Below, one piece after another: positions 3,633-39,980 of a stretch of DNA of 63,084 nt. Within the stretch, counting starts at the first letter, position 1. Each line of letters starts with the position of its first letter. The notes beneath the pieces are model-generated. The model was given only the letters and a program-made list of their open reading frames with translations. It had not been told where the DNA came from and searched no databases. The stretch covers positions 1 through 63,084 of the forward strand of contig MHQR01000020.1 in NCBI GenBank assembly GCA_001820725.1, in the 5' to 3' direction. Both the position numbers and the translations under genes were made by a program. This DNA comes from Candidatus Sungbacteria bacterium RIFCSPLOWO2_01_FULL_54_21 (GTDB taxonomy: Bacteria; Patescibacteriota; Minisyncoccia; Sungbacterales; HO2-52-23).

Positions 3633-3998
3633 ATGATAAATAATGAAAATCCAAACGACACATTCATGCTCTACGATCTGAAAGTAGATGTCGTAGCGCC
3701 GCGCGGGAACATGATCTGCAATCACATTATAGGGGATTACTTTGAATTGAAAGGAGAAAATCTATCCATCCCCGCCGGAAAAAGCTTCTCCATTTATGCG
3801 CTAGCCGCATTACTGCCATTGCTTCCGGCAAAACAGCGCCCAACGGACAAAAACGACTGGATGACGACTGACCAAGAAGTCGCATGCCCCGATCCCCACT
3901 GCGGAGCGCTTTTCCGTATTACGCGAACAAAAGAGCACGTTTTTCGCCATTCAGAAGTAACCGCCATCCCGCTCAAAGAGACAGATACATTTTCTTGA
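3633..3998 (+). CDS. TIGR04076-like small Cys-containing protein
   Basis: MLYDLKVDVV...ICNHIIGDYFELKG...ALAALLPLLPAKQR...DWM...VACPDPHCGALFRITR matches the pattern I recall for TIGR04076. Start moved to the ATG at 3633. Confidence 0.7.
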   Translation: MINNENPNDTFMLYDLKVDVVAPRGNMICNHIIGDYFELKGENLSIPAGKSFSIYALAALLPLLPAKQRPTDKNDWMTTDQEVACPDPHCGALFRITRTKEHVFRHSEVTAIPLKETDTFS

Positions 3999-4032
3999 CA
4001 TTGGATCACAGAGGAGTATCTTGGAGGAAACT

Positions 4033-4218
4033 ATGCTTTCGGATTCCCAGTTGCGCATCGTGACCAGCGTATTGGTTTCCAGCGGAGAGGTATTTCTTGC
4101 GTCACTGGTGGTGCCTTTTTTCACCAGAGAGTTCAGTCCTATTGCATTCGTTCTCGGTATTATGTTCACCGCAGGCGCATGGTTCATCGCTTTAATCATC
4201 GGTAAATATATTTCTTGA
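4033..4218 (+). CDS. small two-TM membrane protein (cassette copy A)
   Basis: GGAGGAAACT before the ATG at 4033. Two hydrophobic spans (VFLASLVVPFF, FVLGIMFTAGAWFIALIIG). Homologous to 36431..36625. Confidence 0.6.
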   Translation: MLSDSQLRIVTSVLVSSGEVFLASLVVPFFTREFSPIAFVLGIMFTAGAWFIALIIGKYIS

Positions 4219-4220
4219 GT

Positions 4221-4316
4221 ATGACCCACTTAGCCATCTTTTATCTTGCAGGCGCTATTCTGCTTTTGGCGATTGCCATCGTGGTATATCCCACGCTTCG
4301 GCATCGTTCCCAGTGA
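4221..4316 (+). CDS. 31-aa single-TM micro-protein (MTHLAIFYLAGAILLLAIAIVVYPTLRHRSQ)
   Basis: ATG 2 nt after the stop of the upstream gene. Hydrophobic core plus basic tail. Paralog at 4414..4512, analogous pair at 36632..36828. Confidence 0.5.
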   Translation: MTHLAIFYLAGAILLLAIAIVVYPTLRHRSQ

Positions 4317-4413
4317 TAGGAGCATAGAACAGACAACGCCTATCATGTTTCCGTATCCCTATGCTTGAGATGTGGATCTTCGCCATGACGCTGGCAAAAG
4401 ACATCCAAACAGT

Positions 4414-4512
4414 ATGAACCAACTCCAACTTTTTTATCTTACCATCGCGATTTTTCTCCTTGCCGTTGCGATCGTTGTCCACCCGACACTTCGCAAAAAG
4501 TCAGGGCGATGA
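4414..4512 (+). CDS. 32-aa single-TM micro-protein (MNQLQLFYLTIAIFLLAVAIVVHPTLRKKSGR)
   Basis: Shares FYL..AI.LLA.AIVV.PTLR with 4221..4316. The conserved reading frame argues for translation. Confidence 0.5.
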   Translation: MNQLQLFYLTIAIFLLAVAIVVHPTLRKKSGR

Positions 4513-4533
4513 TTTCATGGGGCTACCCACATC

Positions 4534-4561
4534 TTGACACGATGGGGGTATCTGATAAGAT
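4534..4561 (+). promoter_or_regulatory. sigma70-like promoter candidate
   Basis: TTGACA (4534-4539), 16-nt spacer, TAAGAT (4556-4561). Confidence 0.3.
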
Positions 4562-4688
4562 AGTCATACTGTTATGAATCATTGTATTTCGCCCACAACT
4601 TCATATTTCTTCGGCTTTACCTACTTTACCCAACGGAGTTGGCGGTCTTGAAATATACAGTGAAGTAAAAGCGTAAATGACCGGCCGA

Positions 4689-4712
4689 CTCCTCAAGAAA
4701 GAGGGGTTTTTT
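4689..4712 (+). terminator. terminator-like hairpin plus T-run
   Basis: CTCCTC-AAGAAA-GAGGGG followed by TTTTTT. Confidence 0.4.
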
Positions 4713-4933
4713 GTTGGCACATTGTCTTTTGACGCCGCGCACGGAATCAGTAGTTCCGCGCCCGACGCCAGAGGATAACAGGTATCCTGCTGGAGATCGT
4801 CAGTACGAGATCTTTGATAACCAAATAATCTCAAGGGGTTAAAGGAGACATCGGCCCATGTGCAGGCAATGTTTGATGCGCTCGGCAGATTAAGATTAGA
4901 AAACCCGACCATACTTCAAGTGAGGAGAAAGGC

Positions 4934-7631: not shown

Positions 7632-8540
7632 ATGAGTATCCTATCCGTATCACGCCTTACCAAACAATTCGGCACATTCACCGCCGTGGACGATCTTTCG
7701 TTTTCCCTGAAAGGGGGGGAAATCCTCGGCCTCCTGGGCCCCAATGGCGCGGGAAAGACCACGACCATCCAAATGCTGTTGGGCGTGCTGACCCCGACAC
7801 TCGGCGCCATAAAATATTTTGGCAAGGATTTTACCCGGCACCGCGAGGACATCCTTGAAGACGTAAACTTTTCCTCCACATATACGCATTTGCCGTGGGG
7901 ATTGACCGTGCAGGAAAATCTACGCTTTATTTCTTTTTTGTACAAGATCGCCGACCGCCCGGCGCGCATCAGCAAGGTCGTCTCGTTGTTTCGTTTGGAA
8001 GAATTACTGTCGCGTCCCTTGATTGAACTCTCGGCAGGACAGCTGACACGCGTGAATCTGGCAAAAGCATTTATCAATTTCCCCAAAGTATTGCTCCTGG
8101 ACGAGCCCACCGCATCGCTCGACCCCGAAGCCGCAAAATACATCCGCGAATTCCTGCTCAACGAGCGCAATCAATTCCAAGTATCTATTATCCTCACCTC
8201 GCACAACATGGCCGAAGTAGAGGAAGTATGCGACCGCGTTATTTTCATTGACCACGGACGCGTCATCGCCGACAACACGCCCACGGAACTTGCGCGATCG
8301 GTGGAGACGTGCCACATCGAATTACTGATCAAAGAAGGCACGGAGCGCGCTATGCGCTATGCTACGGAGCGGGGCAACGGCTCTCGCGTCGAGGGGAAGC
8401 ATATCATCATTGACGTAAAGGAACGCGACATACCGGGATTCCTGCACGGACTCATGGACCGGGGCATTGCCTATGACGAAATTTCCATTGAAAAGCCAAC
8501 GCTGGAAGATTATTTCCTTGCCGTGACCAAAAAAGAATGA
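7632..8540 (+). CDS. ABC transporter ATP-binding protein (ABC-2 type)
   Basis: Walker A GPNGAGKTT, signature LSAGQLTR, Walker B LLLDEPT. Confidence 0.9.
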   Translation: MSILSVSRLTKQFGTFTAVDDLSFSLKGGEILGLLGPNGAGKTTTIQMLLGVLTPTLGAIKYFGKDFTRHREDILEDVNFSSTYTHLPWGLTVQENLRFISFLYKIADRPARISKVVSLFRLEELLSRPLIELSAGQLTRVNLAKAFINFPKVLLLDEPTASLDPEAAKYIREFLLNERNQFQVSIILTSHNMAEVEEVCDRVIFIDHGRVIADNTPTELARSVETCHIELLIKEGTERAMRYATERGNGSRVEGKHIIIDVKERDIPGFLHGLMDRGIAYDEISIEKPTLEDYFLAVTKKE

Positions 8541-9325
8541 ACCTCTACCGCGTCTGGGGCATGACGCTCCGCTACATCTACGCATTCCGCCACAACATCG
8601 ACAAGATGGCGGACGCTTTCTATTGGCCGAGTATTGATTTGCTCCTTTGGGGCCTGACCTCCACCTATCTCACCTCGCTCAATCCCGATGGCGGACAAAC
8701 GGCCTTCTTTGTGGTGCTGTCCGGCATTCTTCTCTGGCTCATCGTCTGGCGCGGTCAGGGAGAAATTACTATGAACGCGCTGGAAGAATTCTGGGAGCGC
8801 AATCTCATCAATCTCTTCGCGTCTCCGCTCATGTTCCGCGAATGGATGGCATCCCTTTTAGCGCTGGGCTTTGTAAAAGCCGTCATGAGTTTTGCCTTTG
8901 CCGTCACTCTTGCATGGGTGCTGTACGCAGTTAATCTGTTTCGATTCGGCTTTCTTCTCATTCCGTTCGGCCTTTTGCTCATCATGACCGGATGGTGGTT
9001 CGGGTTTCTCGTCATGGGGCTCATCCTGCGCTTTGGCAGAAAAGTGCAGGCGCTCGCGTGGACATCCATTTTCGTCATCTCCCCGTTTTCCGCGGCATTT
9101 TATCCACTCTCGACCCTGCCGCACTGGGCGCAGACGATCGGGAAGTGCATCCCCATCACGTATGTGTTCGAGGGAAGCCGCGAAGTGATCGCAACCGGGA
9201 AAATAGACCCGCAAAAATTGCTCATCAGCTTCGTCCTCAATGTCGTGTATCTCACCCTTGCCGGATGGTTTCTGCACCGCAGTTTTGAGAAACTCCGCGA
9301 GCGGGGATTGGAGAAAATAAATTAA
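8537..9325 (+). CDS. ABC-2 type transporter permease
   Basis: 4-nt overlap with the upstream ATPase. Multiple TM spans. Confidence 0.85.
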   Translation: MNLYRVWGMTLRYIYAFRHNIDKMADAFYWPSIDLLLWGLTSTYLTSLNPDGGQTAFFVVLSGILLWLIVWRGQGEITMNALEEFWERNLINLFASPLMFREWMASLLALGFVKAVMSFAFAVTLAWVLYAVNLFRFGFLLIPFGLLLIMTGWWFGFLVMGLILRFGRKVQALAWTSIFVISPFSAAFYPLSTLPHWAQTIGKCIPITYVFEGSREVIATGKIDPQKLLISFVLNVVYLTLAGWFLHRSFEKLRERGLEKIN

Positions 9326-9355: not shown

Positions 9356-10071
9356 ATGGTCCGTATTGTTAAAAAAGATGAGCATACCCGCGCACGTGTG
9401 GGAATGCTAGAAACGCCGCACGGCATGGTGGAGACGCCCGGCTATGTGGTCGTGGGCACGCATGCAAAAGTGCGCGCGCTGGACGCCGACGATCTGAAGC
9501 ATACCGGCACCCAGCTCATCATTGCCAACACATATCACCTGTGGCAGACACTGGGCGAGGAAGGACTCACGCGATTTCCCGGGCTTCATGCCGCCATGGC
9601 GTGGCAGGGGCCGCTCATGACCGATTCCGGCGGATTTCAGGTGTTCAGCATGGGAGCCATGCGCGAGCATGGTGTCGGCAAAGTCACGCGGCATGTTCAA
9701 CACTCGGTGTTTAACACTATTATTGTTAAACACCGAGTGTTGAACATCGGTTTAAGTCCTGCGAGCAAAGTCTTACGAATCACCAAAGATGGCAAGAAAT
9801 GTATCGCGACGACAGAACCGTTTTAGATCCAACATGCGCGTGCTATGTCTGCGCGGAACTAAAGACGGAAAAAAGCGCTCTACATGCCCTGTTCAAAGAA
9901 AAAAATCACGAAGCCGGACGCCTTGCCATCATTCACAATGTCTCCTTTTTCAATACGTTGATGTCAAAGATTAGAGATGCTATCCGCCAGGGAACGTTTA
10001 GCAAACTGTCGGCAATATACGTGTCACGCGCAGAGAAACCGTCTTGGAAAAAGATGGAAAAGATACTATAA
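9356..10071 (+). pseudogene. tgt: tRNA-guanine transglycosylase (tgt) remnant with the TIM-barrel core deleted
   Basis: The N-terminal ~115 aa (ETPHGMVETPGYVVVGT...TDSGGFQVFS) and the C-terminal Zn-site ~90 aa (LDPTCACYVC...IIHNVSFFNTLMSKIR) lie in different frames. The ~190 central residues of a normal Tgt are absent. Confidence 0.7.
9693..9747. repeat. perfect 24-bp inverted repeat with a 7-nt spacer, inside the tgt remnant
   Basis: ATGTTCAACACTCGGTGTTTAACA-CTATTAT-TGTTAAACACCGAGTGTTGAACAT verified base by base. Confidence 0.95.
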
Positions 10072-36361: not shown

Positions 36362-36430
36362 GGAGTTTTCGCTTCTTGACATCTCGGTTTTGACGCGGTT
36401 ATTATAGAAGTTGAAGGAATTGATATTTTT

Positions 36431-36625
36431 ATGTACCTTGATCATCAACAAATCGAGACGCTTTCAAAATATTTCGGTGATGCTTCAAAACTGCTCGTCG
36501 GATCCGTTGTCATAGGGTTCTTCATTCCCAACGAGGCAGAACCGCTTTCTCTCCCTGTATTTTTCTCCGGAATCTTTGCTGCCTTGTCTTTCTTATACAT
36601 AAGCATCGCGCTCGCGAGAAAATAA
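36431..36625 (+). CDS. small two-TM membrane protein (cassette copy B)
   Basis: GSVVIGFF...GIFAALSFLYISIALARK aligns with ASLVVPFF...GIMFTAGAWFIALIIGK of 4033..4218. Confidence 0.6.
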   Translation: MYLDHQQIETLSKYFGDASKLLVGSVVIGFFIPNEAEPLSLPVFFSGIFAALSFLYISIALARK

Positions 36626-36631
36626 AAACAT

Positions 36632-36733
36632 ATGCCCCTCCATCAAAAAATCATCATTGTATATCTGACCCTCACCCTGATAGGCACGGTGTTGTATATT
36701 GTTGGCATGCGGTCTAAAAACAGCAGTATATGA
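36632..36733 (+). CDS. 33-aa single-TM micro-protein (MPLHQKIIIVYLTLTLIGTVLYIVGMRSKNSSI)
   Basis: Starts 6 nt after the upstream stop. Hydrophobic core plus polar/basic tail. Confidence 0.45.
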   Translation: MPLHQKIIIVYLTLTLIGTVLYIVGMRSKNSSI

Positions 36734-36828
36734 TCGGCGATGCAGTATTTTACACTATCACGGCCGTTCTCTTTGCTCTCATGTTTGCCGTGCTGATTTT
36801 CTACAATCCGAAGCCACGCAAACGTTGA
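36730..36828 (+). CDS. 32-aa single-TM micro-protein (MIGDAVFYTITAVLFALMFAVLIFYNPKPRKR)
   Basis: ATGA overlap with the previous micro-ORF. Resembles the 4221/4414 peptides (FY..., basic tail). Confidence 0.5.
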   Translation: MIGDAVFYTITAVLFALMFAVLIFYNPKPRKR

Positions 36829-36880
36829 TGATTCTGCAACACAAAGCTCCCGCGTTACGCGGGCGCTTTTTAGCTCCGCG

Positions 36881-38623
36881 TCATTCCACCACGGCGCGGA
36901 TGCGGCGCACGCCTGCGGAGCTGGCTTCTTCTTTGACGATCTTAAACTTCCCCACTTCGGCGGTATGCTGAACATGAGGCCCGCCGCAGAATTCGCATGA
37001 CACGATCTCCCCGCTCGCGGGGTCGTGCATGGTATATATCTTCACGCGCGGCGGATATTTCTCGCGGAAAAATCCGAGCGCGCCTTTCTGTATCCCCTCC
37101 TCGCAGGGCATTTCCTCCCATTTCACCTGATAGTCGTGCCTGATTGCGTCATTCACCCAGTCCTCCACTTTTTTGATCTCTTCCGGAGTTACTTTGCGCG
37201 GAAAGCGAAAGTCAAAACGCGTGCGCTCCACGGTGATGTCCGACCCGTCCTGCCGCACTTCCGGGCCCAGCACCGCACGCAATCCTGCATGGAGCAGGTG
37301 TGTTGCCGTGTGCAGACGCGTTACTTTTTCCACTTCGGATTCATCCCGGATCGTCACCTCGCCGGTCTTCATATACAGCCCGTGCCCGCCGAATTTTGCC
37401 GATGATCCCGCGCGTGATACTTCCTGATGCTTTTTGAACTCCTCGTCAAATTGCTCGCGCGTGAGATGAATAGCCCTCTTTCCTCCGTCATAATCTTTGA
37501 TCACTTCGTACGGCAGGCCGAAACTCTCGTACAAATGAAACGCGGCCTTCGCGTCTCCGGACGGCATACGCTCCATTTCTTTGAGGCCGTGGCGGAGCGT
37601 TTTCATGAACTTTTCTCTCTCGTCAGAATATGCCGAGACGATACTGTCTTTCTCACGCACAAGTTCAGGATACGTCGGGCCGTACTGTTCAATCGTCCGT
37701 TCAATGAGCGGTCTGACATCGTGCATGACGATCGCGCGCCGGAGCAGACGGCGGAGAACATATTCGCGGTCTTTATTTGACGGTCTTACACCGTCAGCAA
37801 GGAGAAACACGGCCGCCCGTGCGTGATCAGCAATTACCCGCTTCTGCGTATCGGTAAAATCAGAAGGCACCAGGTCCATGAGAGGCGCGTAAAGATCCGT
37901 TTCAAAAATATCATTTTTTCCTTGCACGCACATCGCAAGCCGTTCCAGCCCCATGCCCGTGTCTATGCCTTTGGTCGCAAGCGGCTCCAATGTCGCATTG
38001 CCCGCGAGCAGTTCCTCCCGACTGCCCGAGCAGAAAAACTCATTGAACACGATGTTCCAAACTTCAATATCCTCTCCCGCGCTGTTTTTGCAGTAAATCT
38101 CCGTGGTTGGACCGCAGGGGCCTGATGCCCCGGTCGGCCCCCAAAACACGTCATCCATCCCTTCCTCGCGGATGTCGGTGATACCGAGAGACCGCCAGAT
38201 ACGCGCGGATTCCTCGTCCTTTGGCACACTGATACCCTCTTTTCCCTGAAAGATGGTTACATATGAAATGGCGAGTCCCATTTCTTTTGTCAAAAAATCA
38301 AAAGCGTAGGTAATCGCTTCTTTTTTGAAATATCCGCCGAATGAGAAATTCCCCATCATTTCAAAAAAGGTGAGGTGTCGCCCGTCGCCCACTTCGTCAA
38401 TATCAGAGGTACGAAAGGATTTCTGGATTGATACGGTATTGCGCGAGCCGAAATCACGATCCGCCATTTCAGGATTGGTGTAATACTTTTTGAACTGTTG
38501 CATACCAGCGGTCGTCAAAAGCACCGACGGATCGTCGGGTATAAGAGAAGACGACGGCACGGCGGCGTGCCCGCGTGCCGCAAAAAAATCGAGGAATTTT
38601 TTCCGTAATGCCGCGGAGTCCAT
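36881..38623 (-). CDS. alaS: alanine--tRNA ligase, short form without the C-Ala domain
   Basis: TTAGMQQFK, editing-domain HTATHLLH and CGGPHV. Ends right after the editing domain. Start at MDSAALRKKF. Confidence 0.9.
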   Translation of the reverse strand: MDSAALRKKFLDFFAARGHAAVPSSSLIPDDPSVLLTTAGMQQFKKYYTNPEMADRDFGSRNTVSIQKSFRTSDIDEVGDGRHLTFFEMMGNFSFGGYFKKEAITYAFDFLTKEMGLAISYVTIFQGKEGISVPKDEESARIWRSLGITDIREEGMDDVFWGPTGASGPCGPTTEIYCKNSAGEDIEVWNIVFNEFFCSGSREELLAGNATLEPLATKGIDTGMGLERLAMCVQGKNDIFETDLYAPLMDLVPSDFTDTQKRVIADHARAAVFLLADGVRPSNKDREYVLRRLLRRAIVMHDVRPLIERTIEQYGPTYPELVREKDSIVSAYSDEREKFMKTLRHGLKEMERMPSGDAKAAFHLYESFGLPYEVIKDYDGGKRAIHLTREQFDEEFKKHQEVSRAGSSAKFGGHGLYMKTGEVTIRDESEVEKVTRLHTATHLLHAGLRAVLGPEVRQDGSDITVERTRFDFRFPRKVTPEEIKKVEDWVNDAIRHDYQVKWEEMPCEEGIQKGALGFFREKYPPRVKIYTMHDPASGEIVSCEFCGGPHVQHTAEVGKFKIVKEEASSAGVRRIRAVVE

Positions 38624-38749
38624 AACACCGACATTATAGCCGAATGCGCCGTTTCTTTCTATCTTTCTCAAACTTAGTCATACGCAAAATCATCGGCGAG
38701 CGCAAGCCCGCCAGTGGTAACGCGGTGAAATTCTCTTTTCAGAGAGACG

Positions 38750-39799
38750 CTACAGCGACACCACCTCTTCCCAGGGAAAGCCATCCCGGCCAAAGTGGCC
38801 GTACGCGGCGGTCCTGGCATAGATGGGGCGGCGAAGATTCAGCCGCTCAATGATGGCCTTGGGCCTGAAGTCAAATTTCTCTTTGACGATCGCGGACAAA
38901 TCCCTGCCGTCGTCTGCTTCGGCATATACCATGAGGGGATCGGCGCGGCCGATGGCGTACGCCACCGTGACCGTACATTCCTTGGCCACGCCATTGGCCA
39001 CGATATTTTTTGCCGCAAAGCGCGACATATACGCCGCCGAGCGATCCACCTTTGTAGGATCTTTGCCGGAAAACGCGCCGCCGCCGTGAGGCACGAGACC
39101 GCCATACGTATCCACCACGATCTTTCTGCCGGTAAGGCCGGTGTCTGCCGCAAAGCCGCCGATCGTGAATTTGCCCGTCGGATTTACCAACACCTCCACG
39201 CCGTCGAGGTCGCCCACGACCGGACGGATAAGTTTGCGCACCAGCGTATCTTTGATCTGTTCCTGACTCACGCTATCCGCGTGCTGGCAGGAAATGAGTA
39301 CCGTCGTCACTTTGCCGTCCTGCATGGTAACTTGCGATTTGCCGTCCGGCCCGAGCCACGCGCATTCGGGGTCAGTGCGGCGCAATTGTTCCAAGCCCTG
39401 CGTCAACTTGTGGGACAATGCCACGGCACGCGGCATGAATTCCGGCGTCTCGGCGGTCGCATAGCCGTACATTATGCCCTGGTCGCCAGCGCCTCCCGTA
39501 TCCACACCCTGCGCAATATCGGGCGACTGTTGGACGATATTGGTCATGATCTGAAGATCATCGGTATAGCCAAGCGAACGATAAAACGCGCGGCCGATTT
39601 TGCCCGCATCAACGACGCCCTTGCTCGTAACCTCGCCGCCGATGACCAGAAGTCCGTGCGAGCCAAACGTTTCTACTGCCACGCGCGAGTGCGGGTCAAC
39701 AGCCAAAAACGCGTCCAGCACTGAGTCAGAAATAGCATCGCACACTTTGTCCGGGTGCCCGGACGTAACGCTCTCTACGGTATGGATAGTATGCTTCAT
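38750..39799 (-). CDS. metK: S-adenosylmethionine synthase
   Basis: ESVTSGHPDKVCD, GAGDQGIMYGYA, GGGAFSGKDPTKVDRS. Start at MKHTIHTVE. Confidence 0.95.
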   Translation of the reverse strand: MKHTIHTVESVTSGHPDKVCDAISDSVLDAFLAVDPHSRVAVETFGSHGLLVIGGEVTSKGVVDAGKIGRAFYRSLGYTDDLQIMTNIVQQSPDIAQGVDTGGAGDQGIMYGYATAETPEFMPRAVALSHKLTQGLEQLRRTDPECAWLGPDGKSQVTMQDGKVTTVLISCQHADSVSQEQIKDTLVRKLIRPVVGDLDGVEVLVNPTGKFTIGGFAADTGLTGRKIVVDTYGGLVPHGGGAFSGKDPTKVDRSAAYMSRFAAKNIVANGVAKECTVTVAYAIGRADPLMVYAEADDGRDLSAIVKEKFDFRPKAIIERLNLRRPIYARTAAYGHFGRDGFPWEEVVSL

Positions 39800-39811
39800 A
39801 ACATTTCTAAA

Positions 39812-39980
39812 AGTAAAAAATAAACCCCTTCGCACGGAGGGATGATAAATACTCTTTATCTTCCCCAAGACGTGGGTCGGATGGGGCACCATCCCTAGAT
39901 ATATCAATAGGTCGAAATATCCAGTTGGTTGCCGGCAGGATCACGGGGCCGATTCCCTCCCCTGCGCTCGTGATAATATT
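39812..39980 (-). promoter_or_regulatory. SAM-I (S-box) riboswitch with expression platform, in the metK leader
   Basis: The - strand reads UUAUCACGAGCGCAGGGGAGGGAAUCGGCCCCGUGAUCCUGCCGGCAACC...GGUGCCCCAUCC...GAAGAUAAAG, matching SAM-I core conservation. It is followed by CCCUCC...GGGGUUUAUUUUUU. A possible promoter (TTGTCC, 18 nt, TAGTAT) lies at 40001-40030. Confidence 0.85.

Follow-up and report, generated by a model that had tools for sequence, protein, structure and literature searches.

The window analysed here is a 63,084-nt contig of Candidatus Sungbacteria (Parcubacteria, candidate phyla radiation (CPR)), in which two short plus-strand cassettes, A (4033-4512) and B (36431-36828), encode small membrane proteins. 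In each, the gene for a protein with two transmembrane (TM) helices, here called the hairpin protein, is followed by two micropeptide genes. Cassette A lies behind a promoter-like site (TTGACA-16 nt-TATCTT, 3995-4022) and, by direct reading, a Shine-Dalgarno sequence, GGAGGA, at 4023-4028, 4 nt ahead of the ATG of the hairpin gene. Its first product, hairpin protein A (P0001; 4033-4218; 61 aa), was characterized by family profile, AlphaFold2 and charge distribution as a two-TM protein with predicted N-in/C-in topology. Micropeptide A1 (P0013; 4221-4316; 31 aa; predicted N-out/C-in) starts 2 nt past the hairpin A stop codon, and a 97-nt spacer leads to micropeptide A2 (P0014; 4414-4512; 32 aa). 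Both peptides belong to a family that we term YPTL, A1 on the basis of profile, codon analysis and charges and A2, its paralogue, on the basis of the profile. An original prediction, made from the DNA letters, had proposed these three open reading frames (ORFs) and the paralogy of the two peptides. All three ORFs were recovered at these coordinates and the paralogy held, with A1 and A2 being 61% identical and scoring 66-71 bits on the family profile (A1 ~70, A2 ~66), whereas the runner-up among the 2539 small ORFs of the window reaches 6.5. At the DNA level, the two copies share no extended repeat beyond what coding similarity implies. The identical 61-aa protein occurs on at least 23 contigs, two GenBank assemblies among them, and is annotated as a hypothetical protein of Candidatus Sungbacteria bacterium RIFCSPLOWO2_02_FULL_54; within the strain set carrying it, A1 and A2 were called in three of ten annotations.

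We defined YPTL members as ORFs of ~30-45 aa with the core F-Y-x3-A-x2-L-L-A-x-A-I-x2-Y-P-T-L followed by a K/R-rich tail. Both A1 and A2 fit this description, A2 departing from it at the Tyr position, which is His. Searching 5.8 billion protein sequences with a profile built from A1, A2 and four relatives gave 84 protein clusters, the best at E = 5e-18. The members are nearly all 29-50 aa long, unannotated and share the consensus core FYLxGAILLLAIAIVVYPTL[RK] ahead of a Lys/Arg-rich tail. Pattern scans added 70 loci, 20 of them from GTDB species genomes and 50 from metagenomes. Named carrier genomes belong to Sungbacteria, Levybacteria, Gottesmanbacteria and Amesbacteria, and protein names add Blackburnbacteria and Woesebacteria. 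Eleven peptide positions are at least 90% conserved, and appreciable variation along the helix is confined to positions 10, 11, 14, 18, 21 and 22. Two unusual loci end the peptide differently. At L029 (2480-4189), the peptide has neither basic tail nor stop after YPT and runs in frame into glgA, encoding glycogen synthase, while at L034 (2471-2563) it is cut right after YPT and ends YPTCQ*. An intein, considered for both because of the 'YPT-C...' junction, was rejected, since the first is a tail-less in-frame run into glgA and the second stops at YPTCQ*.

The micro-ORFs had been taken to be translated, a view to be abandoned if relatives showed indels or frameshifts, or nucleotide conservation without codon-level constraint. 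We looked for both in a sample of 24 distinct DNA sequences spanning the 21-codon core, and neither occurred. Identity at the three codon positions was 0.71/0.90/0.33, and synonymous sites were saturated (proportion of synonymous differences (pS) 0.79) with a proportion of nonsynonymous differences (pN) of 0.19 and a pN/pS of 0.24. The core contained no indels, and frame 0 was free of stop codons, with each of the five other frames interrupted in 3 to 24 of the 24 sequences. This codon-position pattern and the frame-specific absence of stops support translation, and the YPTL family is thus protein-coding and under purifying selection at the protein level.

The hairpin proteins form a larger family, defined here as proteins of 59-90 aa that match the family profile and have an L-[NS]-x2-Q-[LIV]-x2-[LI]-[SA]-[ED] N-terminal helix, a Pro ending TM1 and a Gly opening TM2. 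Exhaustive profile searching at E <= 1e-3 gave 885 clusters (50% identity), 144 of them with E <= 1e-10; the best 150 clusters are almost all 59-90 aa long and include no domain fusions. Both window hairpin proteins satisfy the definition. A profile built without the window sequences recovered them at E = 1.8e-15 (4033-4218) and E = 3.1e-13 (36431-36625) and matched nothing else in the window. The only Pfam family to recur among members is DUF6722 (PF20482), which eight of 136 match at E <= 0.1 (best E = 3.1e-6) and 128 do not match. In the window, hairpin B aligns through residues 11-58 with positions 1-46 of the 49-position DUF6722 profile; its score of 18.2 bits (E = 0.003) falls below the 27-bit cutoff and thus outside membership, and the Pfam scan of hairpin A returned no DUF6722 match. 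Hairpin B is 41% identical to P0183, a protein from locus L093 that bears a precomputed DUF6722 annotation, and a superfamily-level relationship with DUF6722 is plausible by way of this protein. A literature search on DUF6722, an uncharacterized family, turned up nothing specific.

The two families are encoded side by side. Of 67 peptide occurrences that could be assessed, 57 have a same-strand hairpin-family gene directly upstream, a count over loci that are not fully dereplicated. Gaps between the two genes mostly range from -16 to +10 nt, with stop and start codons usually overlapping, and this spacing implies that hairpin and peptide are probably translationally coupled. The same arrangement was found at loci reached from the hairpin side (L093, L095 and L096) as well as in Blackburnbacteria and other divergent loci. 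Pairwise distances of hairpins and peptides are correlated (Mantel r = 0.46, with none of 2,000 permutations as high), which shows the two genes diversifying in parallel. A second TM micro-ORF follows the first peptide in two of 62 assessable loci, in this genome and in Gottesmanbacteria (L036), with L096 as a third case. A relative with 84% identity (L011) has two complete tandem pairs instead. Given the upstream hairpin gene in 57 of 67 occurrences, the conserved unit is a two-gene pair of hairpin and one peptide, with the second peptide an occasional addition. The three-part architecture of the original prediction is therefore real in both window cassettes, where all three ORFs are present, but does not describe the family-wide unit.

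Within cassette A, the additional peptide stands apart. A2 lacks a Shine-Dalgarno sequence and is not coupled to the preceding gene, it alone among 74 members carries His in place of the near-invariant Tyr, and its nearest relatives are peptides paired with L020-type hairpin proteins. In view of these features, A2 may be a possibly decaying duplicate whose original hairpin gene is gone.

Cassette B is preceded by a promoter-like site at 36376-36405 (TTGACA-18 nt-TATTAT, 11 of 12 consensus matches). Hairpin protein B (P0101; 36431-36625; 64 aa) falls, by the family profile, into the two-TM superfamily of hairpin A and bears a weak resemblance to DUF6722. Micropeptide B1 (36632-36733; 33 aa), of an '..IVGMRxK' type, starts 6 nt past the hairpin B stop codon, and the start of micropeptide B2 (36730-36828; 32 aa), of an '..FYNPK+basic' type, overlaps the B1 stop codon as ATGA. 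A sequence scan placed a terminator-like GC hairpin and T-run at 36849-36872 (hairpin 36849-36863), ending the cassette; the element is bidirectional and common to the convergent alaS gene. B1 and B2 score 1.9 and 0.9 bits on the YPTL profile and fall outside the family definition. In L093, the P0183 gene is likewise followed by two micro-ORFs, ending ..ILFIVGMRGKE and ..FFYNPKKKSDQ. B1 (..VLYIVGMRSKNSSI) has a counterpart there in the same position (MGLFITYVVIGIFATILFIVGMRGKE), as does B2 (..LIFYNPKPRKR; counterpart MNETIVYVVGFILLSIMLGVAFFYNPKKKSDQ), and identity between copy B and L093 decreases from second to first to third codon position. Because both peptides are matched behind a copy-B-like hairpin gene, copy B is a conserved three-gene version of this design that uses its own types of peptide. 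The architecture had been described as recurring at this site with homologous sequences; the architecture is there and the hairpins are homologous (E = 3.1e-13), but B1 and B2 have no detectable homology to A1 and A2, and the copy-B peptides are best regarded as analogous to those of copy A. Two further features lie beyond the cassette. The AlaS ORF convergent with it (36881-38671, minus strand) encodes 596 aa, which is short for a bacterial AlaS. An S-adenosylmethionine (SAM) riboswitch (RF00162; 39853-39979, minus strand), which at 49.1 bits exceeds the gathering score, precedes a minus-strand ORF at 38750-39907.

We examined the genomic surroundings of the pairs for shared regulation and neighbors. 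Of 49 hairpin genes, 16 have a TTGAC[AT]..TAnnnT site in the preceding 150 nt, compared with 2 of 49 when the control strand is scanned. The 104 flanking ORFs covered by a census represent 84 Pfam families, none of them in more than three loci. The surroundings of relatives of the 61-aa protein vary (an aldo-keto reductase; BtpA with a sugar kinase; an M50 peptidase with rpsL); the hairpin-peptide pair stays together. Neighbors are housekeeping genes such as alaS, rpsL, smpB, dprA, pnp and tsaD, and neither endolysin nor phage genes occur among them. From the promoter-like sites and the lack of a conserved neighbor, the module appears to be self-contained, with no other gene consistently linked. 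HicB-like, BrnT-like, PIN and RHH genes adjoin several modules (L020, L021, L024, L028, L037 and L038), and no family is enriched in the census.

Directly downstream of cassette A, a candidate small RNA (sRNA) or cis element occupies 4534-4712 on the plus strand. Its components are a promoter-like TTGACA-16 nt-TAAGAT site with an extended TG, a stretch of ~145 nt and, at 4687-4708, a terminator-like hairpin with a T-run. Within it, a 52-nt block at 4603-4652 is ~98% identical in the relative with 84% amino acid identity (L011/L017), compared with ~70% in the flanks. No Rfam match was found for the element, and its fold is not unusually stable (z = -0.13). A role as an antisense regulator was rejected, as complementarity to the cassette mRNA is not in excess and the duplex energy is weaker than that of 98% of shuffles. 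No minus-strand promoter-like site was detected in 3800-4900. Farther along the window, a queuine tRNA-ribosyltransferase domain (PF01702, TGT) is divided between two called genes, of 156 and 90 aa, that overlap (window 9356-9826 and the following ORF; L003:11324-12039). A frameshift may be the cause, or the gene may be split or a pseudogene.

For structural information, AlphaFold2 was run on hairpin A with the family alignment and returned two helices, 4-31 and 36-57, at a predicted local distance difference test (pLDDT) score of 93.3. Searches with the hairpin profile against PDB sequences gave nothing relevant, and Foldseek comparison of the model with the PDB returned generic helical hairpins only, with no match at E <= 0.001. 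Mean counts of Lys and Arg in the peptide are 0.27 in the N-tail and 4.3 in the C-tail, and in the hairpin 1.8 in the N-terminal region, 1.6 in the C-terminal region and 0.39 in the loop. By the positive-inside rule, this distribution predicts the peptide to be N-out/C-in and the hairpin N-in/C-in. The topology prediction that had been proposed for these proteins thus yields complementary orientations, with a two-helix hairpin in the AlphaFold2 model and positive-inside charges. A natural fusion was observed in metagenomic proteins P0059 and P0054, in which the N-terminal half of a hairpin (MLSDSQMKFVADVFVTIGEVSLAS) continues in frame into an A2-like peptide (MQLFYLTIAILLLALAIGVYPTLRKRSGK). 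The peptide here takes the place of hairpin helix 2, an arrangement that fits an N-in hairpin and an N-out/C-in peptide.

Our preferred explanation, held with slightly better than even confidence, is that both cassettes are small, independently transcribed CPR operons for a putative self-contained, co-translated small membrane hetero-oligomer. Under this model, translational coupling would lead to hairpin and peptide being made in fixed proportion. The hairpin would insert N-in/C-in and the peptide N-out/C-in, the two would pack as a three-helix unit, and this unit would probably oligomerize further into a membrane-intrinsic complex. In the sampled set, the peptide helix is conserved at almost all positions bar one narrow stripe (positions 10, 14, 18 and 21/22). 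A function can be guessed at with low confidence: a small channel-like or membrane-organizing bundle that acts autonomously and is no subunit of a neighboring machine. Bolder still, and rather doubtful in our judgment, is the suggestion of a minimal CPR-specific membrane machine of a new class, that is, a hetero-oligomeric ion or lipid channel or a membrane-organizing complex that would suit lipid-scavenging organisms. Among the three functional options originally put forward, a small membrane complex fits best, a holin/antiholin set is disfavored, and a toxin/immunity module remains as a rival of distinctly lower probability.

Several observations weigh against this hetero-oligomer model. Ten of the 67 peptides have no same-strand upstream hairpin gene; for one apparent orphan, L033, a hairpin gene is present and divergently encoded. 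Within CPR the family is patchy and multi-copy (two cassettes in the window; L022 and L033 in one metagenome-assembled genome (MAG)), a distribution more in keeping with an accessory than with a core role. Helical periodicity of peptide conservation is not significant, being reached by 492 of 5,000 shuffles. The peptide conservation figures are inflated by the retrieval of relatives, which relied on exact 5-residue words and on the pattern LA[IV][AS]I[VL][VA]YPT. Finally, four module-carrying MAGs (L018, L019, L034 and L035) are titled Gammaproteobacteria or Pseudomonadales, labels that are unverified, and mislabeling or mis-binning is the likely source of such non-CPR labels. Several further module-carrying MAGs are titled Saccharibacteria, again with unverified labels. 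Module sequences in the oddly labeled MAGs are close to Amesbacteria, Levybacteria or Sungbacteria versions.

In the best-surviving rival, the peptide, alone or together with the hairpin, would serve a conserved membrane machine (a translocase, transporter or protease, for instance) whose genes lie in another part of the genome. It would be a regulatory or accessory subunit in the manner of CydX, KdpF, AcrZ, MgtS or sarcolipin. Pairwise identity averages 0.56 for the peptide, a value inflated by word- and pattern-based retrieval, versus 0.32 for the hairpin, and the peptide still reaches 0.54 where hairpins are less than 40% identical. Conservation of the peptide TM helix so far beyond that of the hairpin, with its 11 near-invariant positions, suggests a partner more constrained than the hairpin. 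At L019, moreover, the peptide gene directly follows an NRAMP-type transporter gene, with no hairpin gene. Nevertheless, no large gene is consistently adjacent (at most 3 of 104 flanking ORFs per Pfam family), the distribution is patchy with several paralogues per genome, and the sole weak family matches, FeoB_associated and the CcmI N-terminus, reflect generic similarity of a TM helix plus basic tail (E >= 0.003). We consider this explanation unlikely.

Less probable again is a toxin/immunity or addiction-like module, in which the peptide would be a membrane-damaging toxin neutralized by the upstream hairpin. In type II toxin-antitoxin operons the antitoxin gene comes first, and the pair shows this order, forming an operon of two genes that overlap in ATGA fashion behind a promoter of their own. 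Copies are multiple and sit in contexts that differ even among relatives with 77-84% identity, HicB-, BrnT-, PIN- and RHH-type genes adjoin several loci, and in size and shape the peptide resembles type I toxins, with a TM helix and a charged tail. Orphan peptides exist, however, and their toleration argues against a toxin, which without its hairpin should be lethal. The strong cross-phylum purifying selection on the peptide, with synonymous sites saturated, is unusual for fast-evolving toxins. Neither a PADLOC match nor enrichment of toxin-antitoxin genes in the neighbor census was found, no antisense promoter was detected at cassette A, and the sRNA-like element lacks excess complementarity to the cassette mRNA.

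A holin/antiholin lysis cassette or prophage remnant is highly improbable: small N-in/C-in two-TM hairpins with charged C-termini do resemble class II holins and pinholins, and one family member weakly matches Phage_holin_2_3 (E = 0.013), but relatives are absent from 2.9 million viral contigs, from 50,697 phage genomes searched by tblastn and from PHROGs at E <= 0.01, and the neighbors are housekeeping genes with no endolysin or phage genes. To untranslated micro-ORFs whose similarity is a DNA or RNA repeat or chance we assign a negligible probability, since the missing Shine-Dalgarno sequence of A2 and the omission of A1 and A2 by most gene callers are set against the codon-position pattern, a stop-free frame 0 only, profile E-values to 5e-18 among 5.8 billion proteins, the lack of any Rfam match for the micro-ORFs and the lack of an extended DNA repeat between the two copies.

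Pfam and NCBIfam scans with the six window products and with the family alignments yielded no more than weak, generic TM matches (FeoB_associated, CcmI N-terminus, KPN_two_small, FixQ and MgtS-like). A defence-system identity was rejected, as PADLOC returned no match, and full-text literature searches on the peptide motif and on small membrane proteins in CPR/Patescibacteria found nothing specific. The earlier statement that no described system has this composition agrees with the absence of significant matches in Pfam, NCBIfam, PHROGs, PADLOC, PDB sequences, Foldseek and the full-text literature. By these searches, the pair of small-protein families appears to be previously undescribed and, as far as named records go, CPR-specific.

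CPR bacteria account for a large part of bacterial diversity, many of their proteins lack an assigned function, and peptides below 35 aa are routinely dropped by gene callers. The pair offers a concrete, testable case for this small-ORF blind spot and a promising subject for small-protein biochemistry, and both products are short enough for chemical synthesis and reconstitution. Should it prove to be a channel, a membrane organizer or a toxin/immunity module, hundreds of 'hypothetical' or uncalled genes would be annotated at once, and CPR genomes would be shown to need small-ORF-aware profiles. If the minimal membrane machine is real, few CPR proteins below 35 aa would match its 20-residue peptide helix in strength of conservation.

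Comparison with known systems places the module near several of them. DUF6722 resembles the module in its near full-length profile match to hairpin B; it differs in that both window hairpins score below the gathering threshold and no attached micropeptide is recorded for it. Class II holins and pinholins with their antiholins likewise combine an N-in/C-in two-TM hairpin with a second small membrane protein. Holin cassettes are phage lysis modules beside an endolysin with phage homologues, whereas here neither phage context nor viral homologues were found. The two paralogous ~30-aa peptides of cassette A beside a small membrane protein recall class IIb two-peptide or leaderless bacteriocins. 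In contrast to these, the peptides have no double-glycine leader: an N-tail of 3-12 uncharged or acidic residues passes directly into the TM helix, and they are fully hydrophobic, with a positive-inside tail predicted to retain them in the membrane. The usual unit here has one peptide, and the census found no adjacent ABC exporter or C39 peptidase; the ABC transporter in the window (7632-9325) lies 3 kb from cassette A, behind other genes.

CydX, KdpF, AcrZ, MgtS and the eukaryotic sarcolipin and phospholamban are accessory peptides of at most 50 aa that act by helix-helix packing. The YPTL peptides share with them one conserved TM helix, a short charged tail and an operon with a membrane partner. 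That partner has only ~60 aa here, no significant sequence similarity links the two groups, and the MgtS-like and FixQ matches are isolated and weak. Peptides of the CydX/KdpF type are encoded in the operon of the complex that they bind, whereas no large complex is linked to the present pair (at most 3 of 104 flanking ORFs per Pfam family). The small membrane toxin systems Hok/TisB/Fst, GhoT and entericidin A/B likewise involve hydrophobic peptides of ~30 aa with a charged tail; tandem paralogues, multiple copies in a genome and an overlapping, type-II-like gene order are further points in common with the module. The overlapping stop and start codons and the separate promoter of a type II-like operon are present, a matter of organization only that is no proof of toxin activity. 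An antisense RNA antitoxin, the hallmark of type I systems, was found neither in the promoter scan of 3800-4900 nor in the complementarity test, and no toxin-antitoxin or defence model matched. What sets the module apart from these toxins is that its conserved partner is a protein rather than an antisense RNA, that orphan peptides are tolerated and that purifying selection on the peptide extends across phyla.

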